DNA from: Bacteroidota bacterium
GTDB taxonomy: Bacteria; Bacteroidota; Bacteroidia; B-17B0; Aurantibacillaceae
DNA: 64,000 nucleotides
Assembly: GCA_040387475.1 (NCBI GenBank)
Contig: JAZKDT010000059.1
Span: 10,239-74,238 of the forward strand
Direction of reading: 5' to 3'
Shown piece after piece: positions 19,474 to 59,362 of the stretch. Each line of letters opens with the position of its first letter. The stretch's first letter is position 1. A program made the translations under genes and the position numbers. The notes under the pieces were generated by a model, which searched no databases, had not been told where the DNA came from, and saw only the letters and a program-made list of their open reading frames with translations.

Positions 19474-19481
19474 AAGTTGTT

Positions 19482-29613: not shown

Positions 29614-29615
29614 CG

Positions 29616-34695: not shown

Positions 34696-34886
34696 ATGAA
34701 TTCGTTGTTTAACGAATTTACATAAAATTAACTTCAATTTATCATAGAATATACATTAAATAACTTTACTATGGTATTTATAAATCACTGATCTTAACAC
34801 CGGTAAACTAATTTGTATTTGGATGACTTTAATTAAATTTACTGAATATGCTAATTATGAGTAGTTTTATTATAAAAATAACCCCT

Positions 34887-37034: not shown

Positions 37035-37046
37035 GGTTTATAAACG

Positions 37047-37084
37047 TAAAAAAGCCGTTCCAATACTGGAACGGCTTTTTTGTT
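37047..37084. terminator. Bidirectional rho-independent terminator
   Basis: AAAAAAGCCGTTCCA-atac-TGGAACGGCTTTTTT, a 10-bp GC-containing stem flanked by an A-run and a T-run, between convergent genes. Confidence 0.85.
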
Positions 37085-37097
37085 TTTATTAAAACAA

Positions 37098-39908
37098 CTA
37101 CTTGCTCAAATATAAATTACGTTCACTGTATATGTTTTGGAAATACTCGTCTTGCAAACTATCAATAAAATAAATAGCTTCACCCGTTGATTTCATTTCA
37201 GGACCTAATTCCTTCTGAATCTCAGGGAATTTTTCGTAACTAAATACCGGAATTTTAATGGCGTATCCTTTTTGCTTAGGCTCAAATTTAAAATCTTTTA
37301 CTTTAGCACCTAACATCACCTTTGTAGCATAATTTACATAAGGCTCATCGTATGCTTTAGCAATAAATGGCACAGTACGCGATGCGCGGGGATTTGCCTC
37401 GATAATGTAAACGACCTCATCTTTAATGGCAAATTGTATATTTAATAGCCCAACGGTGTTCAAAGCCACTGCGATCGTTTTGGTATGTTGCTCCATTTGT
37501 TTCAGCACATTTTCGCTCAGGTCAAATGGAGGTAACACAGCATAACTATCTCCGCTGTGAATACCAGCAGGCTCAATATGTTCCATCATACCAATAATGT
37601 GAACATCTTTGCCGTCACAAATCGAATCCGATTCAGCTTCAATGGCATTTTGCAAAAAGTGATCCAATAAAACCTGGTTGCCCGGCAAATCGTGCAGTAA
37701 TTTAACCACGTGCTGTTCAAGTTCTTCTTCATTAATAACAATCTTCATGCTTTGTCCACCTAATACATAACTCGGGCGAACCAATAAAGGAAAGCCCAAT
37801 TCTTTAGATAAGGTAATCGCTTCTTCAGCATCTGTAATAACTCCGAACTTAGGATAAGGGATATTATGATCTTTTAATAAGTTAGAAAATCTTCCCCTGT
37901 CTTCAGCAAGATCTAAGGATTTAAAATCGGTGCCTATAATTTTAATGCCATAACGTTCTAATTTCTCTGCTAATTTCAAAGCTGTTTGGCCACCTAATTG
38001 AACAATCACACCCACAGGTTTTTCATGTAAAATGATATCGTAAATATGCTCCCAGAACACCGGTTCAAAATATAATTTATCGGCCGTACTAAAATCAGTA
38101 CTAACAGTTTCCGGGTTACAGTTGATCATGATTGTTTCGTAACCCATTTCTTTGGCTGCTAAAACGCCATGTACACAGCTGTAATCGAACTCAATACCCT
38201 GACCAATACGGTTTGGTCCGCTGCCTAAGATGATCACTTTCTTTTTATCTGTGCGAATACTTTCATTTTCATCTTCAAACGTCGAATAATAATAAGGCGT
38301 CTTTGCTTCAAACTCCGCCGCACAGGTATCAACCATTTTAAAGACGCGGTTAATATTCATTTCCTTACGCTTATTATAAACCTCACTTTCCAAACAACGC
38401 AACAAATGCGCTACTTGCCTGTCGGCATATCCCATTTGTTTCACTTCATAAAGTATATCTCTTGGAATATCACTTAACTTATACTTAGATACTTCATTCT
38501 CCAAAGCAATCATCTGTTCGATTTGCTCCAGGAACCACATATCAATGCGCGTTAGCTTTTGAATTGTTTTGATAGAAATACCCAATTTCATCGCATCATA
38601 GATCATGAACAAACGATTCCAACTTGGCCTTTCCAACCCCGCTAATAATTCGGCCTGATTTGTATTTTCTTTTCCATCTGCACCTAAACCATTGCGTTTA
38701 ATTTCCAATGATTGACAAGCTTTTTGCAGAGCTTCCTGGAAAGAACGGCCGATCGCCATTACCTCACCAACCGACTTCATCTGGAAACCTAATTCGCGAT
38801 TACAACCTTTAAATTTATCGAAGTTCCAACGTGGAATTTTTACGATCACATAATCCAAAGTTGGTTCAAAATATGCTGACGTTTGTTTCGTAATTTGATT
38901 TTGTAGTTCATCCAACGTATATCCAATGGCTAATTTACTGGCGATACGCGCAATTGGGTAACCGGTTGCTTTACTGGCTAATGCAGATGACCGGGATACA
39001 CGCGGGTTAATTTCAATGGCAATGATCTCTTCTTTTTCGTCATCGCTTACCGCAAATTGCACGTTACATCCACCCGAGAAATTACCAATACTGCGCATCA
39101 TTTTGATAGCCATGGTACGCATTTTTTGATAGGTGCTATCACTTAATGTTTGTGCAGGAGCTACTGTAATACTGTCTCCGGTATGCACACCCATTGGATC
39201 AAAATTTTCGATGGAACAAATAATCGCTACGTTATCGCTCTTATCACGCAACAATTCCAATTCATATTCTTTCCAGCCTAAAACAGCTTTATCAATTAAA
39301 ACTTCATGTATCGGTGAAGTCTGCAAACCTCTGTTCAATAAGTGATCATAATCTTCTTTTTTATAAACTACTGAACCACCGCTTCCACCAAGGGTAAACG
39401 AAGGGCGGATCACTAAAGGAAATCCAAACTCCTGGGCAATAGATTTACCTTCTAAAAATGACTTAGCTATTTTAGACGGAGCCATAGAGACACCAATCTC
39501 ATTCATGCGGATGCGGAACAAATCTCTATCTTCGGTTACCTTAATTGCATCGATATCAACACCGATCATTTTCACCCCGTATTTTTTCCATATGCCCAGG
39601 TCATCACACTTTAAAGCCAGGTTTAATGCTGTTTGTCCGCCCATTGTCGGCAATACAGCATCAATTTTTCTTTCTTCCAAAATTTTGATGATCGATTTTA
39701 CTTCCAGAGGCAACAGGTATATATGATCTGCCGTTACTTTGTCAGTCATGATCGTAGCGGGATTGGAATTGATTAATGTGACTTCAATACCTTCCTCGCG
39801 AAGGCTTTTAGCAGACTGGGAACCTGAGTAATCAAACTCGCAGGCCTGACCAATAATAATGGGGCCGGAACCAATAATTAAAACGGATTTTATAGATGTG
39901 TCTTTCAT
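37098..39908 (-). CDS. carB: Carbamoyl-phosphate synthase large subunit, short form ending at the allosteric-domain boundary
   Basis: Two ATP-grasp halves (IIGSGPIIIGQACEFDYSG and ILGSGPNRIGQGIEFDYS). At 936 aa it corresponds to E. coli CarB without its C-terminal ~135-aa MGS-like domain. Confidence 0.9.
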   Translation of the reverse strand: MKDTSIKSVLIIGSGPIIIGQACEFDYSGSQSAKSLREEGIEVTLINSNPATIMTDKVTADHIYLLPLEVKSIIKILEERKIDAVLPTMGGQTALNLALKCDDLGIWKKYGVKMIGVDIDAIKVTEDRDLFRIRMNEIGVSMAPSKIAKSFLEGKSIAQEFGFPLVIRPSFTLGGSGGSVVYKKEDYDHLLNRGLQTSPIHEVLIDKAVLGWKEYELELLRDKSDNVAIICSIENFDPMGVHTGDSITVAPAQTLSDSTYQKMRTMAIKMMRSIGNFSGGCNVQFAVSDDEKEEIIAIEINPRVSRSSALASKATGYPIARIASKLAIGYTLDELQNQITKQTSAYFEPTLDYVIVKIPRWNFDKFKGCNRELGFQMKSVGEVMAIGRSFQEALQKACQSLEIKRNGLGADGKENTNQAELLAGLERPSWNRLFMIYDAMKLGISIKTIQKLTRIDMWFLEQIEQMIALENEVSKYKLSDIPRDILYEVKQMGYADRQVAHLLRCLESEVYNKRKEMNINRVFKMVDTCAAEFEAKTPYYYSTFEDENESIRTDKKKVIILGSGPNRIGQGIEFDYSCVHGVLAAKEMGYETIMINCNPETVSTDFSTADKLYFEPVFWEHIYDIILHEKPVGVIVQLGGQTALKLAEKLERYGIKIIGTDFKSLDLAEDRGRFSNLLKDHNIPYPKFGVITDAEEAITLSKELGFPLLVRPSYVLGGQSMKIVINEEELEQHVVKLLHDLPGNQVLLDHFLQNAIEAESDSICDGKDVHIIGMMEHIEPAGIHSGDSYAVLPPFDLSENVLKQMEQHTKTIAVALNTVGLLNIQFAIKDEVVYIIEANPRASRTVPFIAKAYDEPYVNYATKVMLGAKVKDFKFEPKQKGYAIKIPVFSYEKFPEIQKELGPEMKSTGEAIYFIDSLQDEYFQNIYSERNLYLSK

Positions 39909-39913
39909 AATTT

Positions 39914-40012
39914 AGTTTAAAGTTTGAAAGTTGAGAAAGTTTGAAAGTTGGATTACATAGCAGAAAATTGATTAAACTTTCTAAACCTTTGAACTTTAAA
40001 ACTTTCCAAACC
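39914..40012 (-). promoter_or_regulatory. Repeat-rich long imperfect hairpin in the carB 5' leader
   Basis: Direct repeats AAGTTTGAAAGTT occur twice, facing inverted copies AACTTTAAAACTTTCC / AAACTTTCTAAACC ~40 nt away. The structure ends ~6 nt from the carB ATG. Confidence 0.45.
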
Positions 40013-40117
40013 ATTGGAAAAAACAAACTTGGTAAAGATAGCGCTTTGATAGACTTTTGCCTTATTAAGATTTTAACATTTAATTAATAAGCAGGCTTTT
40101 TGTTTTAATTCGTAAGT

Positions 40118-40678
40118 TTGTTAGTGTTTACTTATAAAAATAGCCTGTTTTCTGCACTTTTAGTTCTCCCGTGCTTGTTAACAATGGCTCAGGACGACTA
40201 CACGGGCCCAAAAGCCAGGGATTATACTAAAGATCCTGCTAAAAACGCGGCTTTTATTGAACTGGGAGGAAATGCAGGCTTGTATTCCTTGAATTTTGAA
40301 CGCATTTACTATTACCGTGAAAAACTTAAAATAAGTGGCCGTTTGGGATTTGCGCCCAGCTTTAACGGAATCTATATTGAACAGATCTATCTTTTAGAAA
40401 ACAATTTTATCCTATTTTCAAATCCACATCACCTGGAATTGGGCCTTGGAGCTACCCTGCAACGTCGTTATAATGAACGCCCCGGTTTTCCTGATAATTA
40501 TTTCTGGGAGAATATCATTTTTGGCGCAGGTCGTGTTGGCTATCGTTATCAGAAACAGGATGACGGATTTTTTATCCGAGGTGCCTTAACGCCCATCTTT
40601 ATGAGCAATGATGCTTTGGGGTTTCATTCTGATTATTTTCAGTTTTGGGCTGGAGTAAGCGTTGGGGCAAGTTTTTAA
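40118..40678 (+). CDS. Hypothetical secreted protein (possible small OM beta-barrel)
   Basis: Apparent TTG start, signal peptide ending TMAQ, alternating hydrophobic pattern and a terminal aromatic residue (GASF). Confidence 0.4.
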   Translation: MLVFTYKNSLFSALLVLPCLLTMAQDDYTGPKARDYTKDPAKNAAFIELGGNAGLYSLNFERIYYYREKLKISGRLGFAPSFNGIYIEQIYLLENNFILFSNPHHLELGLGATLQRRYNERPGFPDNYFWENIIFGAGRVGYRYQKQDDGFFIRGALTPIFMSNDALGFHSDYFQFWAGVSVGASF

Positions 40679-40692: not shown

Positions 40693-40810
40693 TGTATTTT
40701 CGAGTAACATTTACTTGTTCTTTATAAATGTGTATCGAGAAGTATTTTGATAAGCAGTTCTCGATACAATTTTTTGCGAGATGCAGGCAAAAAAATCATT
40801 CGAACTGCCA
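40693..40810. repeat. MITE/REP-like palindromic intergenic element, copy 2
   Basis: TGTATTTTCGAGTAACATTT...GTATCGAGAAG-N-TTCTCGATAC...AGGCAAAAAAATCATTCGAACTGCCA is collinear with copy 1 at 19366-19473. Confidence 0.7.
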
Positions 40811-40815: not shown

Positions 40816-42222
40816 TTATTTATTTAATTCCATCTGCAGTTGATACTTCAAAGATTTTAGCTTTAAATAAGGGATCTTCAGTAAGTTTTTATTCTTTGTT
40901 TGCAGATATACTTCGTTCATAACCCATTGAATAGCATATTGGTAATATTGTTTGGGATGAGTGCGTTTAAAATCAATGTCTCGGTCGGTCGATGTTTCCC
41001 ACTCCAGGCGCTGATCCAAAAATTCATTTTTTACTTCGTTGTATAATTCCGTTCCTTTGATGGGATACGCAACTGTGATGGTATACTGCGAAGGATTAGA
41101 TTGCACCAAATGTTCGATCGTTTCTTTAATATCATCTTTGGTTTCTCCTGGATAACCCAACATGATAAACGTTCCTGCTTCCAGGCCATGCTGCTTAGCA
41201 AGGTTTATCATCTGTCGTGTTTGCATCACATCCACTCGTCTATCCATAGCATCGATTATTTTTTGAGAACCACTTTCGGCACCAACCCAAACCCTAAAAC
41301 AACCGCTCGCTTTTAAAGTTTTGATCACCTCTTCATTTAACCTATCCGCACGCGAAATAATTTCATAAGGGATGCCCGCGCCCTGCTTTTTTACCTCTTC
41401 TGCAAATTCGTTTAGCCACTTATGATGAATGGTGAACACGTCGTCCACAAACCAAATCATATCAGGATTGTAAATATCTTTGATTTGTTTCATTTCCTGT
41501 GCAACTAATTGCGGAGAACGTCGCCGATAGGTGCCGCCATATACAGCGCGACTGCACCATTTGCAGGTATACGGACAACCACGCATGGTATTGACGCTCA
41601 TCATACTATAACCGTGGTGGTTTTTCCATCCATTCAAATAAGGCGTGAAATCAATCTTCTGGCGGTTTGGAAATGGCAATGTGTTCACATCCTTTATTAA
41701 AGCGCGTTCAGGAGTGGTAATTACTTTTCCATTTTCTAAATAAGCAATTCCTTTGATTGAGGACAAAGCGTCGCTTCTCGACTTCGCTCGAAGTGACAGG
41801 TCTGTCGTTGTGTTTAAAAATTGAATCAGTTCCAGTGTTGTTTCTTCGCCTTCGCCGATGATAATAAAGTCTCCGCCGTAATTCAAAAAATTCTCCGTGT
41901 GATTTCTTACTTCCGGTCCGCCCAAAATAACCTTAGTATGGCTCAACGTATTTTGCGATCGAATGAATTTTATGATCTTCAAAACGTTGAGCTTTGTCAT
42001 TAGGTTAGTATAAATAGCAATCACATCCGGTTTTTGATCCAGTAAGTTTTCTTTAAGTTTATCGAGCGTTGAAAATGTAGAATCAAACACCTCATTTTCG
42101 AAACCATGTTTTTCTATGAATGAGGAAATATATAATATACCCAATGGCACATATGGCCGCATGATCTGAAGTTCTTTCGGATCTTCGCTTAAAAAATAAC
42201 CATGTGTAAAAAGGATCTTCAT
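40816..42222 (-). CDS. B12-binding-domain radical SAM protein (class B), subfamily 2
   Basis: N-terminal Rossmann-like MKILFTHGYFL...PYVPLGILYISSF and the radical SAM cluster motif RGCPYTCKWC (CX3CX2C). Confidence 0.8.
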   Translation of the reverse strand: MKILFTHGYFLSEDPKELQIMRPYVPLGILYISSFIEKHGFENEVFDSTFSTLDKLKENLLDQKPDVIAIYTNLMTKLNVLKIIKFIRSQNTLSHTKVILGGPEVRNHTENFLNYGGDFIIIGEGEETTLELIQFLNTTTDLSLRAKSRSDALSSIKGIAYLENGKVITTPERALIKDVNTLPFPNRQKIDFTPYLNGWKNHHGYSMMSVNTMRGCPYTCKWCSRAVYGGTYRRRSPQLVAQEMKQIKDIYNPDMIWFVDDVFTIHHKWLNEFAEEVKKQGAGIPYEIISRADRLNEEVIKTLKASGCFRVWVGAESGSQKIIDAMDRRVDVMQTRQMINLAKQHGLEAGTFIMLGYPGETKDDIKETIEHLVQSNPSQYTITVAYPIKGTELYNEVKNEFLDQRLEWETSTDRDIDFKRTHPKQYYQYAIQWVMNEVYLQTKNKNLLKIPYLKLKSLKYQLQMELNK

Positions 42223-43004
42223 TATTTCTTTTTAAAGGTAATGATATAATGATCAGCAAAATTGGAAAAAAACGAAAATGAACACATACGATCAGCGAAA
42301 CGTAATACGTTCAAAAACAATTGTCTCTTTAAAAAATACGGTTCCAAATAGGAAGGCGGCACAAATAATCCAATTGGCTTCGATATTATACATTCATAAT
42401 CGTCGCCAAATAATTCTTTAAAATATTCAGGACTGTAATAATAGGTTTTAAATTTCTCATCATTGATAATGGTCTCAACTCCTGTTTTATTTTGACGGCG
42501 AATCGATCTATCCTTATCTTTTTTGAGTGCAAAATAAAAGCGTTCCCATAAACATTGTGTTCCCATAATAACAAATACTAATTGATCACCTTTTTTTTGA
42601 AGAGAATCACAGCCGTTCCTAAATTGTATGAGTTCATTAGCATTAAGGCAATTTAATCCGCCAAAATTGGAAAAAATTAAATCATATTTATCTTTTTCCA
42701 AGGAACCAATGTGAATACAGTTCAATTGTCTGAATTCAACCTTCTTTGTTTTTTGCTTCGCCACCTCTATCATCCCTTCAGAAATATCAGTACCTAATAC
42801 CTCTACGCCTTTTTTGGAAAACCACAAGGCATCTTCACCTGTTCCGCAATTAACTTCCAGTACTTGCTTTATATTATTTTCAATAACTTTTCTTAATTGC
42901 CTGCGCACCTGGTCACGTTGAGCCTCACCAATCATTGAATAGGTAAAATGATTGTCATAATTTATGGCGTAACTATCAAAGGCTTGCGGCTGCAATGGGC
43001 TCAA
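42222..43004 (-). CDS. Class I SAM-dependent methyltransferase
   Basis: Motif I VLEVNCGTGEDALWF, post-I VLGTDIS and later DLIFSNFGGLN. Confidence 0.75.
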   Translation of the reverse strand: MSPLQPQAFDSYAINYDNHFTYSMIGEAQRDQVRRQLRKVIENNIKQVLEVNCGTGEDALWFSKKGVEVLGTDISEGMIEVAKQKTKKVEFRQLNCIHIGSLEKDKYDLIFSNFGGLNCLNANELIQFRNGCDSLQKKGDQLVFVIMGTQCLWERFYFALKKDKDRSIRRQNKTGVETIINDEKFKTYYYSPEYFKELFGDDYECIISKPIGLFVPPSYLEPYFLKRQLFLNVLRFADRMCSFSFFSNFADHYIITFKKK

Positions 43005-44436
43005 TTTTTTTTAGTCTTTGTTTTTCTATTTGTTCACCTGGTATCATTTTTAAAAGCGATATTGCATTTTTAAAATGTTGCTTGGTAGGAGATAATAACA
43101 ACTGTTTAGCAGACGCAAAGCCCACATGCTTACGGTATCGCTTGTGAATATAACGTTGCAGCTGTTTATAAAAATCTTTATGATAGGTGTTTTTAAACAT
43201 CATGTCTAAATCGTCACTATCTGTCCAATTACTTTTTTCCTTTAATTGTTCTTTTACCTTCTCATAAAATAATGTGCCGGGTAAAGGGTACGATACCGAA
43301 ATACCGATATCATCGGGCAAAAGATCTTCAACCATCTTAACGGTTAACTTAATATCATCTATGGTTTCGCTCAAATATCCAAGTTGAAGAAATAATGAAA
43401 CCTGAATATGATGTTTTTGTAAAAGTTTAGTGGCTTCGTAAATCTGCTCCACTTTTGTGCCTTTATCCATAGCGTCCAATATTTTTTGAGAGCCACTCTC
43501 TGCACCCATCCAAACCATCGTACAGCCGCTACTGGCCAAATGTTTCATATTGTCTTCCTCTAATAATAAATCGGCCCGGCTTTGTATTTTATAACTAATC
43601 TTTACTTTTTCCCTGATTATATAATAATCGAACTCCTTTAACCAGTTTGGCTTCAATCCAAAAATATCGTCGGCAAACCAAATGTGAGTAAAACCAAATT
43701 GCTGTTGCCATTTCTTAATTTCCAAAACTATATTTTCGGGACTATGAGAATTATAACGGTTACCATAAATAGGTTTTGCACACCAATTACATTTATAAGG
43801 ACAGCCGCGAGTGGTTACAAAATTCAAAGAAAAATAACCGTGGTTTTGCATCCACATATTTTTGTATCCGGATATATCTATCAGGTCCCATGCCGGCGAA
43901 GGCAATACATCCAAATCTTTAAGAACGACCCGGGGACTTGTTCTAATTAGCTGTTTATCATTCAAAAATGCGATCCCTTTTATAGAAGTTGTCGACTGCT
44001 CAGCTTTAAATGCATTACATAATTCCAAAACCGTTTGTTCAGCTTCACCAATTACAACTACATCTGCACCATGGTTTAAATAATCAATTATATGATCTGT
44101 AGCATCCGAACTCGAAACGATGACTTTGCAACCTTTGCTTTTAGCGTACGCCTGCATATCAAAACACGCTTCCCGCATATTAGTGAGACACATTTTAGTG
44201 AGGTAATTAAATCCGTCATCATAACTGATAAAAACATCGGGTTTAAACTCATCAATGGTTGAACGAATATCAAAAGCCGAATAACAAAACATCGTGTCAA
44301 ATAATTTAACGTCGTAACCATTCTCCCGCAAATAAGACATGCCATATAGTGTTCCTAAAGGAGGATAAGGCATAGCTGTTTTCAACTGCTTAGCATCAAA
44401 TCTTAAAAAATAACTATGGGTAAATAGAACCTTCAC
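42976..44436 (-). CDS. B12-binding-domain radical SAM protein (class B), subfamily 2
   Basis: MKVLFTHSYFL...PYPPLGTLYGMSY and TRGCPYKCNWC. It is a paralog of 40816-42222. Confidence 0.8.
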   Translation of the reverse strand: MKVLFTHSYFLRFDAKQLKTAMPYPPLGTLYGMSYLRENGYDVKLFDTMFCYSAFDIRSTIDEFKPDVFISYDDGFNYLTKMCLTNMREACFDMQAYAKSKGCKVIVSSSDATDHIIDYLNHGADVVVIGEAEQTVLELCNAFKAEQSTTSIKGIAFLNDKQLIRTSPRVVLKDLDVLPSPAWDLIDISGYKNMWMQNHGYFSLNFVTTRGCPYKCNWCAKPIYGNRYNSHSPENIVLEIKKWQQQFGFTHIWFADDIFGLKPNWLKEFDYYIIREKVKISYKIQSRADLLLEEDNMKHLASSGCTMVWMGAESGSQKILDAMDKGTKVEQIYEATKLLQKHHIQVSLFLQLGYLSETIDDIKLTVKMVEDLLPDDIGISVSYPLPGTLFYEKVKEQLKEKSNWTDSDDLDMMFKNTYHKDFYKQLQRYIHKRYRKHVGFASAKQLLLSPTKQHFKNAISLLKMIPGEQIEKQRLKKIEPIAAASL

Positions 44437-44440
44437 TGAA

Positions 44441-45370
44441 TTATAAGTCTATTTGAAATTGATTAGCAAAAGTCACTATTTTCTCCTGCCATAAAGTCAA
44501 CACTTTGTTTTGATATCCTTTTGAATGGTATTTGCAAACATGCTTTCTCGAACGAAACTGAAGATCAAAATCTTCACGGCTCAATTCAGGGTGCTTTTTT
44601 CGCCAGTGTTTTAATGTCATATAGAGTAATTTATCGTCAACCCAATTTCCAAATTTTCCCAAAAACAAAAATTCAATCCATTTTTTATACCAGGGCGAAG
44701 GCGTTTCAATACAATGGAGTCCGGACGATTCCGACTTATTCAAAAACTTAGTTTTATACCAGCTATTATCTTTCAATATCCTTTTATAGACGGGATAATT
44801 AACTGTTGGTAATAAATAAGCCAGCTCAGTAGCTACGAAATCATTCTTATCAGGAATTAGAAGATCTTTCTCTGATATAAAATAATTTAAACAGAAATTA
44901 TCTTTATTTTTTTTTGATAAGGTCTTATAATATAAAATAAATATGGTACGGCATATCCATAAACGATTGGCTTTGGTGATAACAAAATAATCTATATCGC
45001 TGTATTCATCATAATAGTTTTTCGATAATCCTCCTGAAATACAGATGCCGGAAATAAAAGGAAAACTCGCTATCCTTTTACTATAACGATACGCTTTAGG
45101 CATAGTTTTTATAGCTTCGGCATTTCCTTTTAACCGCCGGGCAATATTAGCAAACGATGCTGAAGGAAGTAAGTAAAATCCTTGTTCCTCTTTAACGAAA
45201 CCCTCCTCTATTAAACATTGCATATCTGCCATGAGATCATCTTTACCAACAATTACAGGCATATTCTCAAATACCTCATCAAATTTTAATGGATAATTAA
45301 ATACATCAAAATATAACAAGGTCTTTAATACGTTTTTCTGATTTAAATTAATAGTAAACGTTTGAATCAA
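44441..45370 (-). CDS. Nucleotidyltransferase-fold (Pol-beta-like) protein, function unknown
   Basis: ISGGLSKNYYDEYSDIDYFVI fits the hG[GS]x9-13Dh[DE]h signature. The start appears to be TTG. Confidence 0.5.
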   Translation of the reverse strand: MIQTFTINLNQKNVLKTLLYFDVFNYPLKFDEVFENMPVIVGKDDLMADMQCLIEEGFVKEEQGFYLLPSASFANIARRLKGNAEAIKTMPKAYRYSKRIASFPFISGICISGGLSKNYYDEYSDIDYFVITKANRLWICRTIFILYYKTLSKKNKDNFCLNYFISEKDLLIPDKNDFVATELAYLLPTVNYPVYKRILKDNSWYKTKFLNKSESSGLHCIETPSPWYKKWIEFLFLGKFGNWVDDKLLYMTLKHWRKKHPELSREDFDLQFRSRKHVCKYHSKGYQNKVLTLWQEKIVTFANQFQIDL

Positions 45371-45392
45371 ATGGTCATAGTTTTATTACCAT

Positions 45393-46079
45393 CTAAGATA
45401 CGCTAATCAGCGTGATTTTAAAAATAAAATTGGTTTCCCATTTAATCTTTTTATGCACAAGTAATTCTAACGAAAACTGATGCAATTTTGCGATATGTTT
45501 AATTTCATCAATCTCGCAATTGTCGGCTAAAATCATATAAACACTACTTTCGACATGTATATAGTTTTTTAAAGCCGAAAATAACTTAACAAAATATTCA
45601 CCATTTTTTCCGCAATTCCACGCCAGCTGATCAATACTTTTAACATCCTCAAAAAAATAAGGAGGGTTAATCACAACAACATCAAATTTAAATACCTGAA
45701 TAGCATCAAATAAATCACTTTTTAAAACAGATACATTTGTTGTGACTTTTCCAAAGTTTATCTCAAAGTTCAGTTTGGTGCAATCAATGGCTACTGCATT
45801 AATGTCACATGTAGTAACAATTGCTTCTTTTTTATACGCTAATAAACTGATAAGGCCTGATCCGCAACCAATTTCCAGGAAATGCTTATTAGTTATATCC
45901 AGTGTAGAAACAAAATCAAATAAATATGTACTACTGAAGAAGAATTTAGGATGAAAAACCGTTGGTCTGATGACTAGTTTAAACCCACGTACTGTATCGG
46001 TTCTTTCTTTTTTTAAATACCAAAGCACATACGGTTTGACAAAGGTTTGCACGTATATTTTCTGAAGACGATCCAGCAT
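45393..46079 (-). CDS. Class I SAM methyltransferase with an NPPY motif (N-methyltransferase type, HemK/RsmC-like)
   Basis: Motif I FLEIGCGSGLISL and motif IV FDVVVINPPYF. Confidence 0.75.
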   Translation of the reverse strand: MLDRLQKIYVQTFVKPYVLWYLKKERTDTVRGFKLVIRPTVFHPKFFFSSTYLFDFVSTLDITNKHFLEIGCGSGLISLLAYKKEAIVTTCDINAVAIDCTKLNFEINFGKVTTNVSVLKSDLFDAIQVFKFDVVVINPPYFFEDVKSIDQLAWNCGKNGEYFVKLFSALKNYIHVESSVYMILADNCEIDEIKHIAKLHQFSLELLVHKKIKWETNFIFKITLISVS

Positions 46080-46080
46080 A

Positions 46081-47577
46081 CTAAAATCCTTCAGTTTCAG
46101 GTTGCCTGTATTTCCATACCCGTTGCAAGAAACTTATTTCTTTTGGAAAAGTATATAAGCTGCTTTTGTATCTCCAGCTGCTTAAAGTTTTTAAAATGAG
46201 CTTTTTCGACGTGGATAAACGTATATCAGAATTAGAAGGATAATACCCGTTCAATACTGTTTCAAACTGTTTGATCTTATCGATCATGTATGGCTTTAAC
46301 CAGGGGGTTAACGGGTTTTTACGAAGATCAAAATTTTCCCACGCAGGACTGATCCAATCTTCTAAAGTTTCAGGGAATTTAAAGCCGCTATCTAATACCT
46401 GTTTATACATATCAGATCCTTCTGTAGGGACCGGACTATAGGTGTAAATTATAATTTCTGTTTTAGGATTAATAGCTTTTACTTTTTTAATAAAAGTAAT
46501 ATCCTCCTCAATTTGTTTGTTCACCTGTTCTTCTGTATCTCCCGGAATTCCCAGCACAAAAGAATATTCAGGAATGATGTCGAATTTTTTTAAACGTTCG
46601 GCAAATTTTAAAATCTGAGCTCCGGTTTGCGTGCCCCCCTTGTCCATTTTTTTCAAAACTTCGTCATTACCTGTTTCCGCACCGAAAAAAATCATCTTGC
46701 ATCCCGATTTTCGAATAGCTGCTAAAGATTCGTCTTTATATTTATCCATGGTGTCGATACGTGCTTCGCCCCACCAAACCATGTTTTCTTTTTCAATCAA
46801 CTTAGCAAATTCAACGGTTCGTTTTTCAGAAACAAAAAAATTGTTATCATGAAATTCAATAGAATCTGCATGATAAGTATCTTTCAGTAGCTTCACATCA
46901 TCATAGATCCCTTGTGCCGATTTACCTTTCCAGCGGGCGTTATAAATAGGCACAACTGCGCAAAACGAACAAGTGAATGGGCAACCAAAGCTACTATGAT
47001 AAGCGATCGTTCTTTTTCCTAAATACGTTTTGGGTAGTACTTTTTGAAGTGAGTAGAAGTTGTTTAGTTTATTATAAGGCAACGCTGGCAATTTATCCAG
47101 ATCCAATAATTCTTCTTTAGCTGTTTTTACAATTTGCCCGTCCTTTTTATAGATCAGGTTCTTGATATTATTAACCGGCAACTTATTTTCTATTGCATTT
47201 ATCAATTGAGGAAAAGTGTTATCGCCAGGCCCATTTACTATATAATCTACATAACCAGAATTTAAATTAACTGCATATTGATTAGAAGCAAAGTAACCTC
47301 CGAAAATTATTTTGATATGCGGATAATTCTCTCTGATCTTTTTTGTGAAAGGAATGGCCTGCTTCAATTGCGGGCCAGGCATGACCGTACAAGCAAAATA
47401 ACTAATCTTACCAGTACATAAATGCCCTTCAATTACAGCCCATGGATCTTTTTCTAAATTCCCATCTACAATAACCCAATCATAAATTCCATCAATACTA
47501 GCCGCTATTTGCAACACACTATTGGGTATGCGCGGATTGTGATTGGTAGCTCGTGGATTAAATAAAAGGATCGACAT
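46081..47577 (-). CDS. B12-binding-domain radical SAM protein (class B), subfamily 1
   Basis: MSILLFNPRA...VIVDGNLEKDP and SSFGCPFTCSFCA (CX3CX2C). Confidence 0.8.
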   Translation of the reverse strand: MSILLFNPRATNHNPRIPNSVLQIAASIDGIYDWVIVDGNLEKDPWAVIEGHLCTGKISYFACTVMPGPQLKQAIPFTKKIRENYPHIKIIFGGYFASNQYAVNLNSGYVDYIVNGPGDNTFPQLINAIENKLPVNNIKNLIYKKDGQIVKTAKEELLDLDKLPALPYNKLNNFYSLQKVLPKTYLGKRTIAYHSSFGCPFTCSFCAVVPIYNARWKGKSAQGIYDDVKLLKDTYHADSIEFHDNNFFVSEKRTVEFAKLIEKENMVWWGEARIDTMDKYKDESLAAIRKSGCKMIFFGAETGNDEVLKKMDKGGTQTGAQILKFAERLKKFDIIPEYSFVLGIPGDTEEQVNKQIEEDITFIKKVKAINPKTEIIIYTYSPVPTEGSDMYKQVLDSGFKFPETLEDWISPAWENFDLRKNPLTPWLKPYMIDKIKQFETVLNGYYPSNSDIRLSTSKKLILKTLSSWRYKSSLYTFPKEISFLQRVWKYRQPETEGF

Positions 47578-48404
47578 TATGAATTGATAAAATATAAAAT
47601 TCCGCTTTTTTCTTTTTTCAGGAACTTTTTTATTAGACCCGGAACAGAAAATTTATAGGATATGAATTTAAAGCTATTTTTTGAAAATTGATCGAGGTCT
47701 TCATAACTAAAATACCCTTTAGAAGGATAAAAACGAATGTTAAACTCATAACGTTCTTTAAAATAGGCATTTGTGGTCGTAATCTCTGACTCTTTAACAG
47801 CTACACTTTTATAAAATGTATTTCCCAGAATTAAAAGAATTCCATTCTTTTTAAGCAACCTTTTATATTTCTCAATTAATTGCACCGGATCTGTATAAAA
47901 CTGCAGGCAATGGTTAAAAACGATCATGTCAAACTGTGTTGCATACATCTCTGTTTGTAACACATCGGTCTGAATAGATAGCCAGTTTGCTGATGAGAAA
48001 TGCTTTTTTGATCCCAATCCATTATACTCATCATCAAAAATATCTGCAGTTATAACTATTGCGTTAGTTTTAGATAAATAATTTGTTAACCATCCGTTCC
48101 AACCCCCAATTTCAAGTACATGAGTTTTGGAATTTAAATACTTAGAAAAATATTCTTTTAATGTTATAAGATCCTGTTTCCTGGTAAAGGTCTCAGATGC
48201 TAATTCGTTAATATCAACTTCAGGAAAGTTCTCATACAAATGAAAAGGCAAACGATAATTGTTTTCCTTTATTTGAATTTCCGTAAAACGATCCAGAAAA
48301 GATCGCAATTGCTTATTAAATTCAGCAGAAGTAATTGTATGAATACCATCATGAGATTCTAGTTCGTGATCTTCAGGTACTTTTATAAATTCACGAATAT
48401 TCAT
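47577..48404 (-). CDS. Class I SAM-dependent methyltransferase (divergent motif I)
   Basis: HVLEIGGWNGWLTNYL, VITADIF and FDMIVFNHCLQF. Confidence 0.65.
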   Translation of the reverse strand: MNIREFIKVPEDHELESHDGIHTITSAEFNKQLRSFLDRFTEIQIKENNYRLPFHLYENFPEVDINELASETFTRKQDLITLKEYFSKYLNSKTHVLEIGGWNGWLTNYLSKTNAIVITADIFDDEYNGLGSKKHFSSANWLSIQTDVLQTEMYATQFDMIVFNHCLQFYTDPVQLIEKYKRLLKKNGILLILGNTFYKSVAVKESEITTTNAYFKERYEFNIRFYPSKGYFSYEDLDQFSKNSFKFISYKFSVPGLIKKFLKKEKSGILYFINS

Positions 48405-48407
48405 GGC

Positions 48408-49490
48408 CTAATTTGAAAACGCGCTGCAACATCTGCTGCAGGCTGGCAATAAGCCTCCTTCATTCGCAACTGTTTTCCTGAATTTGGCAATAATCTTGCT
48501 GTTCCATATCTCTTTTAAATTTTCCTGATATAAGTTACCAATAGTTAAATTATAGCAGCGGCCATGGGCGGGAATAACATCCCCATTAGATTTTATCATT
48601 ACCGCCGTGAAAATATCGTAACATTTTTTGCCATATAATTTTTCAGGTTCATGGTAAAAAGAATACATTGTCTGACGATCGCTTATTTCTGGCGAAAAAG
48701 AAACTCTGAATGGATAGGTTGTTTTTTTTATTTCTTCAATTTCAGAAAAAAGAGTTTTCAGGTCATACTGATTCAGATCAATATCCTTCATATTAGAAGC
48801 GGTTGCAAAATATTCTTTTCCAAAACGAATATTATGGTCATCTGCAACTCCATCGGGCGTGTAGTTTGTATGCATAAAGCCAATTTGCTCAAATGGATAA
48901 TCTCTAAAATGGTCTAGAAATTCTTTTAATCGTCCTATATTCCATTGTGTAATCACGCAAAACAAAGAGATCTTCGGGCGTTTTGGTTGTGAAAATAAAT
49001 AATCAATTCCTTCTACTGCTTTTTCAAACGACTTACTATAGCCTCTGATTTCATTATGTATATCAGCGGGTCCGTCCAAAGAAACGTATAATTCGTTAAG
49101 ACCTCCATCAATTAATTTGTCTGCCCATTTCTTTAAGGAAAGCGCATTGGTTGTGATACTGGTAAACAGTTTTTTCTGTGATGCGTATTTTAACGATTCG
49201 TATAAATGACTATAAACCAAAGGTTCCGTAAATGCATAGCCTAATTTCGTATTTGGATAATACATCGCAGCCTGATCTGCTATTTTTCTAAATAGCTCCA
49301 TTGGCATGTGCAAAGGAGTTGTGCCCACTAAATTTTGATAAAAATTACTGTCGCTGTAATCAACACCTACGTCACACATTTTGCAATGCAGGTTGCAGGT
49401 ATTATTAACGCCTAATACTAACCAATCTGGCCCATAAAATAATTTTTGTGGAATATGTTTTTGATTGAGATATTTAAGCTTATCGATCAT
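48408..49490 (-). CDS. Radical SAM protein with a SPASM/twitch-like C-terminal Cys cluster
   Basis: GVNNTCNLHCKMCD (CX3CX2C), a core YVSLDGPADIHNEIRG, and C-terminal GRCYN...LPACSRCCSAF. Confidence 0.75.
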   Translation of the reverse strand: MIDKLKYLNQKHIPQKLFYGPDWLVLGVNNTCNLHCKMCDVGVDYSDSNFYQNLVGTTPLHMPMELFRKIADQAAMYYPNTKLGYAFTEPLVYSHLYESLKYASQKKLFTSITTNALSLKKWADKLIDGGLNELYVSLDGPADIHNEIRGYSKSFEKAVEGIDYLFSQPKRPKISLFCVITQWNIGRLKEFLDHFRDYPFEQIGFMHTNYTPDGVADDHNIRFGKEYFATASNMKDIDLNQYDLKTLFSEIEEIKKTTYPFRVSFSPEISDRQTMYSFYHEPEKLYGKKCYDIFTAVMIKSNGDVIPAHGRCYNLTIGNLYQENLKEIWNSKIIAKFRKTVANEGGLLPACSRCCSAFSN

Positions 49491-49496
49491 TTTAGG

Positions 49497-50912
49497 TTAC
49501 GACATTTTTTGAACAGGCTTTAACCATTCTTTTAATTTACGTTCGATCGGAAAATAATAAACTTTGTTTTCGATACGCCATTTGGCAAATTCCTGAAAAA
49601 GAAATTTAGCAGGTGTTCGATCATTATAAGCCATGTTTTGATAAAACTTAAAATTCTCGATCTCACGGATTTTTTCTTCACTGATCCATTCACTTTTTTT
49701 GGTGCCTACATAATCAAAGTTACTCCATTCTTCAAGTGTTGAATTAAACTGATACCCTTTAGCCAGCAACTCATCTGCAATTTTATTTCCAGGGTAAGGC
49801 TTATAGTAAAAAATGCTCATGTTAAATCTGCTACTCATCTTTCGAAGTTCTTTTACCATACGCAAAGTTTCTGAAATGCTTTCATCTGTTTCTCCCGGAA
49901 AGCCAACGATGATACTGAAATTAATCGCGATATCATATTTTATACACTGTTTCGCTGCTTCATAAATATGTTCCAGCTTAATATCTTTCTGCATCCAGTC
50001 CAACATCTCCTGGGTACCTGCTTCCATGCCTATCATTACCCGTTCAAGTCCGGATTCCTTGCATAATTTCCAAACCTCATCATCCAACCGAACTCCCTGA
50101 TCAGCCCGCATGGTGCCAAACCAGCTCACCGGTAGTTTACGCTTAATGAACTCCTCTGCGACAGCCTTTACACGTTTACTGTTCGTAAAAAATGTTTCGT
50201 CCTGTAAATGGATATGCTCGAATTTATATTTTTGCCATAGCGATTCAATCTCCTCGCCTATTCTTTCAGGGCTATAGCCATACCAACCGCGTTTATACAT
50301 AAATGGATCGGCACAAAAGGAACAACGGAACCGGCAACCCTGTGATGAGATATAATCCAATTGTTTTCTGCCGCTTAAATTCATGTAACTGTTAACGTCG
50401 ATCAAATCATAATTAAAAGGTGCAAAATTATTAATATCTTCCATCACCCGCTCGCCGTTCTCAGCATAAGCACCGTTTACTTTATAACAAATGCCTTTTA
50501 CTCCCTCTAATGACGTCTTTGCAACAATTCGCTCGAGCAGTTCTTTAAACGTATTCTCTCCCTGACCTTTTACCACCACATCCACGCTTGACTCATCGAG
50601 TGTTTGTTTTGGGAATAATGAAGCATGCCAGCCACCCCAAACTACAGGCATGTTAGGGAATTTTTCTTTTACCGCCCTTGAGACTTTAACTGCATCTTTT
50701 ATCGGACTTCCGGTTAAAACAGTAGTTGCAAAACACACACCATTATTCTGAAGAGCTTTATTAATTTTGATCATGGGATCAGATTCCAACCTACCATCTA
50801 CGATCACTACATTGTATTTATCAGCATCCAAAACCGAACCAATAGCCAATAAAGCTAATGGCATAGTGTAAAAAACAGCTTCGGGATTATATAGTACAAC
50901 AGTATATTTCAC
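49497..50912 (-). CDS. B12-binding-domain radical SAM protein (class B), subfamily 1; first gene of the operon
   Basis: The start appears to be GTG. VVLYNPEA...VIVDGRLESDP and SSQGCRFRCSFCA. It is a paralog of 46081-47577. Confidence 0.8.
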   Translation of the reverse strand: MKYTVVLYNPEAVFYTMPLALLAIGSVLDADKYNVVIVDGRLESDPMIKINKALQNNGVCFATTVLTGSPIKDAVKVSRAVKEKFPNMPVVWGGWHASLFPKQTLDESSVDVVVKGQGENTFKELLERIVAKTSLEGVKGICYKVNGAYAENGERVMEDINNFAPFNYDLIDVNSYMNLSGRKQLDYISSQGCRFRCSFCADPFMYKRGWYGYSPERIGEEIESLWQKYKFEHIHLQDETFFTNSKRVKAVAEEFIKRKLPVSWFGTMRADQGVRLDDEVWKLCKESGLERVMIGMEAGTQEMLDWMQKDIKLEHIYEAAKQCIKYDIAINFSIIVGFPGETDESISETLRMVKELRKMSSRFNMSIFYYKPYPGNKIADELLAKGYQFNSTLEEWSNFDYVGTKKSEWISEEKIREIENFKFYQNMAYNDRTPAKFLFQEFAKWRIENKVYYFPIERKLKEWLKPVQKMS

Positions 50913-51004
50913 TGGAAGAATAAATTGTGTACTAAAGTTAATTAAAATTATTACACTAAATGTGCGTTGGTTGATTAATTCCCGTAATTTTAATTCAGAA
51001 ACAA

Positions 51005-52081
51005 ATGTGTAAAACGATATTATATATTCATTTCCATCCTTCGCATTATAGCGACAAATTGGATTTTATAAAAGAGCAGTTATCTTCCTTATCTTATAAA
51101 ACCGAATTAGGAAAAACGTGTGCCGTACATTATTTGTTAAATAATAACCTGGAGTTCAATGAACAGTATGAATCTATTCAATTAATTTCTAGGAAATTAA
51201 GCCGGTGGGCCTTTTTAATATTAGCTGTTCAGTATATTAAAACCAATAAGTGCAAATATGTTATTATTCATGGTCTGGACTACTTTTTAGAGGCGGTTTT
51301 TATAAAATGGTTTTCGGGATCTAAAGTAATCATACAACATCATGCCGAGAAAACCTATTTAAGAAAAAAAGCCCGGTTAATGCCATGGGCAGATAAGTGG
51401 ATCGACGCTTATTTTTTCAATGGTAAAAACGTAGCACTCCCTTTTATTCAAAAAAAATGCATTGCTTCTATTAGCAAAGTTTATGAGGTAGTGGAAGGCA
51501 GTTCAAACTTTAAGCTTCAATCAGCTAAAAAAACCGGATCTTTTAAGCAGTTGGTTTTTATAGGACGTTTAAATCCAAATAAAAATCTGATGACTTTATT
51601 AAAAGCCATTCTTATTTTAAAAACAATGCGTTCCGATTTTCATTTATCCGTTTACTATACCAGCACCGAATTAGAAAAGGAACTTAAAATATACTGCAAG
51701 CAAAATGGCATTACAGATACTATTACATTTAAAGGTTCTGTTCCTAAAAGCGAAATAGAAAGTGCTTTAAACCGATCTGACATTTTTGTTTCCTGCAGTT
51801 TGTATGAAGGAAGCGGGTATTCGTTGATAGAAGCGTTAGCGTGCGGTACTTTCCCTGTGGTATCACACATTCCTGCTTTTGATTTTATACTGGAAAATCT
51901 GATTGATAAAGAACAATTTGAACCTATAAGTGAAACAGAATTGGCGCATAAACTAAATAAAGCGCTAAATGGATCATTCACAAATCAGAGAAAAGAAACA
52001 ATTCGAAAACATTTTGATAATAAATGCAGCGACCAGGCAATTGTTTTACAAATAGAAAATGCTTTAACGCAATTAGTTTAG
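51005..52081 (+). CDS. Family 4 (GT-B, Glycos_transf_1) glycosyltransferase
   Basis: FIGRLNPNKN and the EX7E region YEGSGYSLIEALACGTFPVVS. It is divergent from the rSAM operon across a 92-nt spacer. Confidence 0.75.
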   Translation: MCKTILYIHFHPSHYSDKLDFIKEQLSSLSYKTELGKTCAVHYLLNNNLEFNEQYESIQLISRKLSRWAFLILAVQYIKTNKCKYVIIHGLDYFLEAVFIKWFSGSKVIIQHHAEKTYLRKKARLMPWADKWIDAYFFNGKNVALPFIQKKCIASISKVYEVVEGSSNFKLQSAKKTGSFKQLVFIGRLNPNKNLMTLLKAILILKTMRSDFHLSVYYTSTELEKELKIYCKQNGITDTITFKGSVPKSEIESALNRSDIFVSCSLYEGSGYSLIEALACGTFPVVSHIPAFDFILENLIDKEQFEPISETELAHKLNKALNGSFTNQRKETIRKHFDNKCSDQAIVLQIENALTQLV

Positions 52082-53131
52082 CAAAAGTGCCATAATCTTT
52101 TTTGCCGAATCACCCATTGTGTTAAACGTTACGCGCTCCGTTTCTTCTTTTTCAGACAACAGATCAAGAATGAAACTTACAAGACTGGCTTTATCTGTGT
52201 TTATGTGCAAGTTTTTAACAGGATCATTGCCTAATTTCTGTGTAGAAACAACTTTACATCCGCTAAATAAAGCTTCCATCAAAACTGTCGAATTTCCTTC
52301 GTAATGAGAGGTGTGCAAAAATAACCTTGATTGATTCATTAGACCCAATGTTTCTTTATGGCTTTTTGCTCCCAGCAACTCGATATTATGTTGTAAGTTA
52401 TGTTGTGAGATCAAATTGCTTAAGAGTTTTTTTTCTTCGCCCTCTCCTGCAATTTTGACATTCAATAAGGGATGTTTTTTTACAACTTCTATAATGACAC
52501 CAATAAATAAGCTATAATTTTTAAGAGGACTTAAGTAGCCTGCACCAAAAATATCAATGGCTCTATGCGCTGTATTTAAAGGTTCGAAAAGTTTAGGATT
52601 AATGCCATTGGTAACAACATGTTGCGGATCTATGAGATGATTTTTTTTAAATTCATCTTTTAGAAAATCGCTCATCGCCATTAACTGTTCAGGCTTGGGC
52701 CGTATTTTTTTAATAAAGCCATTGGTTGTTTTAGCATCCTGTCCAATAATCCAGATCATATGTTTGAGATTATTTTCCAATGCAAATTTATTGGCTACCA
52801 ATGCTGTATCTATACACCATAAACTAATTAAACCTTTAATACTACAAGTTTCTTTAAGCTCATTCAGTTTTTGAGAAGCAAGGCGTTTTGTATTTAGTCC
52901 AAAAATATGTTTTTTGTTTTTGCCACCTATGGCATGTACATCAATTCCATTCCAGCTGTATAAACCCTTTTTGAATGGGTATTGAAGCGTAATAAAAACG
53001 AATTTAAAATCAGAAAAATTATGTTTAAGCGCTAATGCAAATTGCTGAAAAGCCGGCAGACACGTTGTATCATTTTCGTTTTCCGGAAAACCAGGAGTAA
53101 CAATAACAATACAGGCTAATTTATTTGGCAT
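52073..53131 (-). CDS. Family 4 (GT-B) glycosyltransferase
   Basis: HYEGNSTVLMEALFSGCKVVST (EX7E). Its start overlaps the stop of the upstream amidohydrolase (TAATG). Confidence 0.75.
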   Translation of the reverse strand: MPNKLACIVIVTPGFPENENDTTCLPAFQQFALALKHNFSDFKFVFITLQYPFKKGLYSWNGIDVHAIGGKNKKHIFGLNTKRLASQKLNELKETCSIKGLISLWCIDTALVANKFALENNLKHMIWIIGQDAKTTNGFIKKIRPKPEQLMAMSDFLKDEFKKNHLIDPQHVVTNGINPKLFEPLNTAHRAIDIFGAGYLSPLKNYSLFIGVIIEVVKKHPLLNVKIAGEGEEKKLLSNLISQHNLQHNIELLGAKSHKETLGLMNQSRLFLHTSHYEGNSTVLMEALFSGCKVVSTQKLGNDPVKNLHINTDKASLVSFILDLLSEKEETERVTFNTMGDSAKKIMALLLN

Positions 53132-54396: not shown

Positions 54397-54513
54397 ACGC
54401 TTCTATTTTTTAACCGCCGAGTTTGCAAAGTTATTTAGCAAAGCTCGCGGAGTATTTATTATATAATTTTCCTTTTTTATTTTTGCTTTAATCTCCACGC
54501 ATCTAAGGTTAAT

Positions 54514-56562: not shown

Positions 56563-56655
56563 CTGTAAAAATACATTTTTTTACTCAAAATTATAGCTAT
56601 TTCAATAAGTCAAACTTTTTTAGACTATCATATACTCACATTTATCCTTAAATTT

Positions 56656-57723: not shown

Positions 57724-57740
57724 AATTTTGCCATTATTTA

Positions 57741-57770
57741 AAAAGCCTAACTATATTCAGGCTTTTTTAC
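57741..57770 (+). terminator. Rho-independent terminator
   Basis: AAAAGCCT-aactatattc-AGGCTTTTTT lies directly after the stop at 57723. It argues that the next gene starts at 57782. Confidence 0.65.
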
Positions 57771-57781
57771 TATTCAATTGT

Positions 57782-59356: not shown

Positions 59357-59362
59357 ATTTTA

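Follow-up and report, generated by a model that had tools for sequence, protein, structure and literature searches.

What do nine clustered genes act on that encode four radical S-adenosylmethionine (SAM) enzymes of the cobalamin (B12)-binding type, a fifth radical SAM enzyme with a SPASM-type domain, three SAM methyltransferases and a nucleotidyltransferase? The question is raised by a 64,000-nucleotide stretch of DNA from a member of the Bacteroidota (family Aurantibacillaceae; assembly GCA_040387475.1, contig JAZKDT010000059.1, positions 10,239 to 74,238), here called the window, in which the open reading frame (ORF) listing and its translations place nine minus-strand ORFs at 40816-50912. 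They are named A to I here in the order of transcription. A preliminary description of the window had presented them as an orphan operon and had named a lipid, a glycan or glycolipid, or a peptide encoded elsewhere as plausible targets. Our analysis suggests that the window operon is a strain-specific enlargement of a cassette that recurs in Bacteroidota in modular form, and we put at about even the chance that this cassette tailors a glycan or glycolipid, i.e., a sugar of a surface polysaccharide or surface glycolipid.

The nine genes are a genuine operon. From A to I the intergenic gaps are +6, +3, -1, +1, +22, +4, -29 and -1 nt, which reproduces the coordinates and the tight packing reported before (gaps of -29 to +22 nt), with the qualification that the -29 nt gap, between G and H, depends on the uncertain TTG start of H. 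Conservation of all nine as one unit, by contrast, did not survive comparison with other genomes. One genome per species was scanned for relatives of F, 80 loci were fetched, and the presence of each gene was called by tblastn with the window proteins against these 80 loci and by independent clustering of all locus ORFs; the percentages refer to those 53 related Bacteroidota loci in which F is flanked by at least 7 kb on either side. F was present in 100% of these, G in 96%, H in 91%, I in 68%, E in 58%, D in 57%, B in 23%, and A and C in 11% each. The full set was found in none of the 53 loci, and the maximum was eight genes, in two loci. The test of co-conservation thus came out against a single nine-gene unit, because no locus is complete, A, B and C occur sporadically and D-E is limited to about 57% of loci; F-G-H(-I) alone is consistently conserved.

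The cassette therefore consists of a core, F-G-H (usually with I), a frequent D-E add-on and the sporadic genes A, B and C. Its typical order is [B][A][C] D E F [second SPASM type] G [extra methyltransferase] H I [extra methyltransferase]. As a rule, G lies immediately 3' of F, and its identity to the window protein is at least 53% everywhere; D has a median identity of 74%, and D and E remain linked even where they are inverted or relocated (L055, L061 and L073; loci are cited by L numbers and single proteins by P numbers). Near relatives of the window, in which F is about 78-80% identical, already vary in their accessories (B is missing from L002 and L003, and B and C from L001), and such turnover is typical of surface-antigen loci. 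Two side observations concern these accessories. A second family of radical SAM/SPASM proteins (about 21% identical to B) is found between F and G in seven loci (L020, L023, L025, L026, L029, L059 and L077; e.g., at 10910-11959 in L023). In L001 (F 79% identical), an arylsulfotransferase (ASST) gene at 4811-6289 stands between the glycosyltransferase family 4 (GT4) gene and A, which hints at sulfation as an alternative decoration.

The word orphan also overstated the isolation of the locus, since the cassette is widespread in Bacteroidota and, as described below, is linked to polysaccharide-assembly genes. Relatives of F were found in at least 428 genomes (one per species), and a profile search of 1.84 billion representative proteins gave 573 F-family clusters at an E-value of 1e-30 or less. 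The 80 loci cover Flavobacteriales, Cytophagales, Chitinophagales, Sphingobacteriales and Bacteroidales, and the carriers include Kordia, Tenacibaculum, Flavivirga, Flavobacterium, Ohtaekwangia, Chitinophagales, Sphingobacteriaceae and Bacteroidales. The cassette also occurs in metagenome-assembled genomes labeled Hydrocarboniphaga, Methylacidiphilales, Saccharospirillaceae and Burkholderiales (L023, L040, L055 and protein P0014). Contamination during binning, and not spread beyond Bacteroidota, is the probable reason for these labels, because the carB gene of L023 is 95% identical to that of the window. In the lineage of the window the cassette sits in a variable island between pyrC/BatA and carB; the window island itself is flanked by a gene for a pyrC-like dihydroorotase (53131-54396, minus strand) and by carB (37098-39908, minus strand), and its content varies among relatives.

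The neighbors of the cassette point to glycan assembly, those annotated in distant lineages being in their great majority polysaccharide-assembly genes. The family of the GT4 gene that is divergent from A was found in 16 of the 80 loci, distant lineages included, and that of the second GT4 gene in 26 of the 80. Independent lineages carry, near the cassette, glycosyltransferases of families GT2, GT4, GT9, GT87 and PMT_2 (the last two of GT-C fold), Wzx, Wzy_C/WaaL-like proteins, two Wzz families, polysaccharide deacetylase, GNAT, FkbM methyltransferase, GDSL/SGNH proteins and, directly 3' of I, MsbA-like ABC exporters, and in Ohtaekwangia a GT2 gene overlaps the start of F. Among the loci of at least 15 kb, at least 41 of 56 contain a glycan-assembly gene, and the frequency of such genes declines with distance from the cassette (24-25% at one to two genes, 16% at three, 8% at four to five, and lower beyond). 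Because the cassette is systematically linked to polysaccharide-assembly genes, we regard the GT4 neighbors in the window as part of the system and not as incidental. The MsbA-like ABC exporters, GT-C/ArnT-like enzymes and GDSL/SGNH genes of some loci would also suit an enzyme set that modifies the lipid part of a molecule (a polyprenyl, hopanoid-like or fatty-acyl chain) in the manner of HpnR/HpnP methylation or of the ladderane-associated B12-radical SAM enzymes; such a role would be in line with sub-threshold NCBIfam matches to HpnJ, HpnR and TIGR04072 (“lipid biosynthesis B12-binding/radical SAM protein”). These matches, however, are far under their cutoffs, BchE and PhpK are matched at least as well, and beside the cassette no cyclase, prenyltransferase, acyl carrier protein, ketoacyl synthase or acyltransferase family recurs. 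The recurrent neighbors are Wzx, Wzy, Wzz and phosphoglycosyltransferase (PGT) genes, and the fusion partners of F include a PGT and a GT4, so that we consider modification of a lipid chain unlikely.

These fusions are the strongest evidence for the link to glycans. The search of representative proteins turned up homologs of F joined to a Bac_transf initiating PGT (P0177), a GT4 (P0207) and a class I methyltransferase (P0209), and all three fusions lie inside loci with Wzy_C, Wzz, GT4/DUF1972, PGT, RgpF or carbamoyltransferase genes. In L070 and L081, a short-chain dehydrogenase/reductase-type epimerase/dehydratase gene follows F and overlaps it on the side of its 3' end. Separately, L082 contains a cassette with a GT4-F fusion and a NodU/CmcH-type carbamoyltransferase (14472-16235, 19346-21636); the IS21-type transposase pair that comes next would fit loci of this kind being mobile or variable.

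The sequence of F and its AlphaFold2 model (pLDDT 88) characterize it as a predicted nucleotidyltransferase of the DNA polymerase beta (Pol-beta) superfamily, in agreement with the earlier call. Its match to the Pfam nucleotidyltransferase family PF01909 is sub-threshold (E-value 0.007). The motif G[GS]...DxD, in the form SGGLSKNYYDxxSDIDYF (SGGLSKNYYDEYSDIDYF), is invariant across 17 homologs and fits the superfamily motif hG[GS]x9-13Dh[DE]h, and F has a family-specific C-terminal motif, QFRSRKxVCKxHxxGxQN. The model comprises an N-terminal winged helix, which is of ordinary order and not PqqD-like, a nucleotidyltransferase core and a helical C-terminal domain. Foldseek matched it to LinB, ANT(4'), MNT and AadA, the best being LinB, ANT(4') and AadA, at TM-scores of about 0.25 and identities of 10-15%; in the PDB, the profile of F found a minimal nucleotidyltransferase, and this at a marginal level only.

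LinB, ANT(4') and AadA, to which F is nearest, are antibiotic nucleotidyltransferases, which raises the possibility that the cassette makes a diffusible aminoglycoside- or nucleoside-like metabolite, with F as a biosynthetic or self-resistance nucleotidyltransferase. The list of parts recalls the pathways of gentamicin, apramycin and blasticidin, with weak matches to GenN, AprD4 and BlsE, and GT4 and deacetylase genes are close by. Against a metabolite of this kind, no set of cyclitol synthase, aminotransferase and dehydrogenase genes is present in the window or recurrent in the loci, the neighbors (Wzy_C, Wzz, Wzx and PGT) are genes of polymer assembly, and the cassette occupies the variable pyrC-carB island rather than a self-contained cluster. 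We give this explanation a slim chance.

The Radical_SAM family (PF04055) was matched above the Pfam threshold in A, B, D, G and I, all five of which carry the CX3CX2C motif in the forms reported earlier (Table 1). The B12-binding domain (PF02310-type, threshold 32.1 bits) exceeded its threshold in A (49.5 bits) and I (54.8 bits) and fell short of it in D (23.9 bits) and G (22.7 bits), the N-termini of which are covered by full-length alignments to B12-radical SAM models (e.g., BchE positions 15-392); the four cobalamin-binding-type N-termini of the preliminary description were thus recovered, two by domain score and two by alignment. By domain content, A, D, G and I are of the class B (cobalamin-dependent) radical SAM type and are predicted to use cobalamin. 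They fall into two types of paralogs, A/D (28% identity) and G/I (38% identity). C-methylation is the commonest chemistry of class B radical SAM enzymes, although AprD4-like members do not methylate.

None of the nine proteins reached a curated NCBIfam cutoff. The best scores of A, D, G and I were 100-171 bits against cutoffs of 360-750, and the equivalogs that scored below cutoff include BchE, HpnJ, HpnR, PhpK, MgmA/TIGR04014, BzaD, TIGR04072 (ladderane), AprD4, ArsL and others. Their sequence matches in the PDB are weak and mixed (MgmA, AprD4, CysS, OxsB, TokK and TsrM). AprD4 is the best of these for I (E-value 7.8e-23), with D and A matching it as well, over the radical SAM core only; G and A match MgmA best, which is the glutamine C-methylase of methyl-coenzyme M reductase (PMC11796369). 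The top NCBIfam match of I is the PhpK family P-methyltransferase (171 bits), with Sden_1168 also matched, and together with the Fom1/Fom3 precedent for a nucleotide handle this would fit decoration with a phosphonate or phosphinate, in which F would form a nucleotide-phosphonate conjugate and the radical SAM enzymes would carry out PhpK- or Fom3-like P- or C-methylation. The cutoff of the PhpK model is 600 bits, however, the signature of phosphoenolpyruvate (PEP) mutase, EDKx5NS, was found neither in the six-frame translation of the window nor in the 1213 ORFs of the 80 loci, and the Pol-beta fold of F contrasts with the cytidylyltransferase type of Fom1; we consider this explanation very improbable.

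The fifth radical SAM protein, B, scored above threshold for a SPASM-type domain (PF13186; 39.2 bits against a threshold of 21.5). Its second cysteine block reads CSRCC (CX2CC) and not CX2CX5CX3C (the full family motif being CX9-15GX4C...CX2CX5CX3C...C), and the auxiliary cluster of B may accordingly be of a reduced, twitch-like kind. Its matches in the PDB, BlsE and MoaA, are weak.

Pfam assigned C, E and H clearly to the class I methyltransferases, and the NPPY motif is present in the translation of E, so that the earlier count of three methyltransferases, one of them of NPPY type, holds. E scored 82.4 bits against the TIGR00537 cutoff of 87 and 54.5 bits against the PrmC cutoff of 199, and by score it would lie outside the HemK/PrmC/MTQ2 glutamine-N5 methyltransferases. 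In the PDB it matched RlmG, N6AMT1/HemK2, RsmC and GenN (the last at an E-value of about 8e-5); RlmG, RsmC and GenN have the same fold as the HemK/PrmC/MTQ2 methyltransferases.

The HemK2/MTQ2-like character of E, close to the TIGR00537 cutoff, is among the observations that would suit a proteusin-like modification of a peptide or protein, with C-methylated side chains, E methylating Asn or Gln amide nitrogens and B acting on a peptide encoded elsewhere. PoyE and HemK are precedents for N-methylation of Asn/Gln amides. The position of MgmA as best PDB match of G and A, the weak matches to models of C-methyltransferases for ribosomally synthesized and post-translationally modified peptides (TIGR03975, ApyD) and the fact that SPASM enzymes often act on peptides would also be compatible with a peptide substrate. 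However, among 408 small ORFs (20-95 aa) within 2.5 kb of the cassette in the 80 loci and the window, none is conserved across lineages and only families of near relatives occur, which bears out the earlier statement that no short precursor-peptide ORF is present. Furthermore, no protease, leader-recognition domain or peptide exporter was seen, the winged helix of F is ordinary in place of PqqD-like, B, the sole SPASM enzyme among the nine, occurs in only 23% of loci, and both the context and the F fusions indicate glycan assembly. Modification of a peptide or protein is, in our judgment, quite unlikely.

Returning to the tailoring of a glycan or glycolipid, the chemistry can be proposed from family membership and analogy, and each single step is much less probable than the target class itself. 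Tailoring would take place in the cytoplasm, and the substrate would be an undecaprenyl-diphosphate-linked repeat unit or an activated precursor. F would transfer a nucleotidyl (or nucleotide-derived phosphoryl) group to this substrate and so provide a handle or an activated hydroxyl; nucleotidylation is proposed because LinB, ANT(4') and AadA, its relatives in fold, nucleotidylate sugar hydroxyls. G and I would then functionalize unactivated carbons, most likely by C-methylation, with radical deoxygenation or rearrangement as possibilities (for I, an AprD4-like deoxygenation would be the alternative), and H would add an O- or N-methyl group. D and E might add a C-methyl and an N-methyl group, as GenD1 and GenN do on the garosamine of gentamicin, while A, B and C might supply further strain-specific modifications and the GT4 pair might assemble the glycan that bears the modified residue. 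More tentatively, and as a possibility that we consider less likely than not, the B12-radical SAM enzymes and the Pol-beta nucleotidyltransferase would install C-methyl groups or other carbon-centered changes directly on lipid-linked repeat units of surface polysaccharides, so that antigen structure would depend on B12 and the modules would generate antigenic diversity. The Bacteroidota that carry the cassette are mostly B12-auxotrophic.

Several points weigh against a glycan target. The ten window neighbors that were scanned for families (ORFs at 34848-40678 and 51005-61775, with those at 1-34737 outside the scan) yielded two GT4 genes only and no Wzx, Wzy, PGT or sugar-nucleotide genes. The glycan families entered the distance count by annotation that followed their high frequency, which introduces a mild selection bias. 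The radical SAM proteins A, D, G and I match known enzymes only weakly, and the enzymes matched range from methylases through cyclases and dehydratases to protein-modifying enzymes such as MgmA; the proposed roles of the enzymes derive from family membership, with no subfamily assigned at a curated cutoff. The substrate class of F is a lead rather than a finding, because its structural TM-scores are low, and a few homologs of F lie among housekeeping genes without G (L053; the occurrence of F without G there and in L070 is otherwise uninformative). Finally, a direct precedent is missing, as we know of no polysaccharide on which a B12-radical SAM enzyme acts. A literature search found nothing on the cassette, nor on cobalamin-dependent radical SAM tailoring of a bacterial surface polysaccharide. 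A 2026 review of B12-radical SAM enzymes (PMC12931638) makes no mention of lipids, polysaccharides or Flavobacteria, and it refers to Bacteroides once, for the use of cobamides by B. thetaiotaomicron and not for a radical SAM enzyme.

A role in defense was also considered and, at the level that PADLOC allows, rejected: it gave weak, generic radical SAM/methyltransferase matches (PDC-M51A, mad2 and pVip) and no match for F. With NCBIfam cutoffs unreached, PADLOC matches generic and the literature silent on the cassette, the earlier statement that the genes fit no characterized pathway is upheld. Taken as a whole, the preliminary description was right in its domain calls, in the unmatched pathway and in naming a glycan or glycolipid as a plausible target, for which the glycan genes beside related loci now speak; the single nine-gene unit was not supported, and the word orphan went too far.

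The coordinates of the genes and of the features next to them are collected in Table 1. The sigma-70 promoter and terminator scans gave results no better than shuffled sequence, with models that are ill-suited to Bacteroidota. The hairpin downstream of I is possibly the end of the operon. No riboswitch or other Rfam family was found in the operon region; the sole Rfam match in the window is a Bacteroidales-type small signal recognition particle RNA (RF04183, 99 bits) at 29611-29716 on the plus strand. Megablast of the operon against plasmids gave no match. The G+C content is 0.32-0.36 over 42001-60000 compared with 0.37-0.40 over 26-42 kb, and the stretch of low G+C extends beyond the cassette.

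Table 1. Genes of the cassette and adjoining features in the window, with predicted functions
Feature	Position	Strand	Description
A	49497-50912	-	B12-binding radical SAM protein, 471 aa, GCRFRCSFC; sporadic accessory
B	48408-49490	-	Radical SAM protein with SPASM-type C-terminal domain, 360 aa, CNLHCKMC; accessory
C	47577-48404	-	Class I SAM methyltransferase, 275 aa; accessory
D	46081-47577	-	B12-type radical SAM protein, 498 aa, GCPFTCSFC; paired with E
E	45393-46079	-	NPPY/“MTS small domain” N-methyltransferase, 228 aa, HemK2/MTQ2-like
F	44441-45370	-	Winged helix, Pol-beta-fold nucleotidyltransferase and helical C-terminal domain, 309 aa; core marker
G	42976-44436	-	B12-type radical SAM protein, 486 aa, GCPYKCNWC; core
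H	42222-43004	-	Class I SAM methyltransferase, 260 aa from uncertain TTG start; core
I	40816-42222	-	B12-binding radical SAM protein, 468 aa, GCPYTCKWC; usually core
GT4 glycosyltransferase	51005-52081	+	Divergent from A; recurrent cassette partner
Second GT4 glycosyltransferase	52073-53131	-	Recurrent cassette partner
Divergent intergenic region A/GT4	50913-51004		92 nt; presumed promoter region, by inference only
Hairpin	40732-40767	-	11-bp stem, 16-nt loop, about 50 nt past the I stop codon, no U-tract, z = -2.4

Some further genes near the cassette were observed in passing. A family of proteins of about 381 aa that has no Pfam match adjoins the cassette in 12 loci (L005, L006, L013, L017, L018, L043, L061, L069, L072, L073, L076 and L078) and is absent from the window; its member at 5117-6262 in L005 has one N-terminal membrane segment and the sequence CMWCH, a CxxCH heme-c-type motif. 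In the window, the plus-strand gene at 34848-37034 encodes a protein of 728 aa with nine MopE-like, putatively copper-binding repeats (PF11617, 267 bits) and a type IX secretion system (T9SS) C-terminal sorting domain. The carB gene, for the large subunit of carbamoyl-phosphate synthase, shows 90-99% conservation among related loci; its product of only 936 aa covers positions 3-925 of a 1058-position model and thus appears to lack the C-terminal allosteric domain. Beyond the dihydroorotase gene, the plus-strand region 56656-59356 contains a gene for a T9SS-sorted “choice-of-anchor L” protein, followed by an ORF of 542 aa without a Pfam or NCBIfam match. The T9SS sorting domains and the signal recognition particle RNA of the window are in keeping with an origin in Bacteroidota, as is the 100% identity of F to a hypothetical protein from a Bacteroidota metagenome-assembled genome.

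If the cassette tailors surface glycans as proposed, it would be the first case of radical, B12-dependent tailoring of a bacterial cell-surface glycan, and cell-surface polysaccharides would join antibiotics, cofactors and lipids as targets of class B radical SAM chemistry. The envelopes of Bacteroidota would then be expected to contain unusual sugars, branched or poly-methylated, and surface structure would be tied to the availability of cobalamin in environmental and host-associated communities. The F-G pair offers a tractable starting point from which to find what a large orphan clade of B12-radical SAM enzymes acts on.

All superfamilies to which the parts belong are known; new are the modular cassette specific to Bacteroidota, the pairing of a Pol-beta nucleotidyltransferase with a B12-radical SAM enzyme, the presence of up to four B12-radical SAM enzymes and the siting in polysaccharide loci. 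Among known systems, the HpnI/HpnK/HpnJ pathway of bacteriohopanepolyols uses a glycosyltransferase, a deacetylase and a B12-type radical SAM enzyme to remodel a lipid-attached sugar. Deacetylase and glycosyltransferase genes recur near the cassette too, but neither the window nor the loci showed any hopanoid genes, and HpnJ, although among the better NCBIfam matches of I, A, G and D, scored 112-147 bits against a cutoff of 577.6, so that none of the four is HpnJ. Polytheonamide biosynthesis (PoyB, PoyC, PoyD and PoyE) combines several B12-radical SAM C-methyltransferases with another radical SAM enzyme and an NPPY-type amide N-methyltransferase, whereas the cassette has no nearby precursor gene and lies in a context of glycan assembly. 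AprD4, the radical SAM diol-dehydratase of apramycin 3'-deoxygenation, acts on a sugar within an oligosaccharide; its NCBIfam model scored 102 bits against a cutoff of 500.

The adjacency of F and G has a parallel in the nucleotidyltransferase/B12-radical SAM pairing of Fom1 and Fom3, in which Fom3, a class B radical SAM enzyme, needs the cytidine monophosphate handle from Fom1 in order to recognize its substrate (PMC9088020). The fold of Fom1 differs from the Pol-beta type of F, however, the cassette has no PEP mutase, and the PhpK- and Fom3-type models remained far under their cutoffs. For D-E, the logic resembles that of GenN and GenD1 (together with GenK) in gentamicin biosynthesis, where GenN N-methylates and the B12-radical SAM enzyme GenD1 then C-methylates the same sugar on the assembled oligosaccharide (PMC4340712). 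E matches structures of GenN weakly, and D is likened to GenD1 by its proposed role; gentamicin, moreover, is an actinobacterial secondary metabolite made with cyclitol, aminotransferase and dehydrogenase genes, which the cassette lacks. The architecture of a nucleotidyltransferase with a helical domain, finally, is shared by F and its best structural matches, LinB, ANT(4') and AadA/ANT(9), all of which act on the hydroxyls of sugars or aminocyclitols; F differs from them in its additional N-terminal winged helix, in its own C-terminal motif and in its occurrence in glycan loci instead of resistance contexts.

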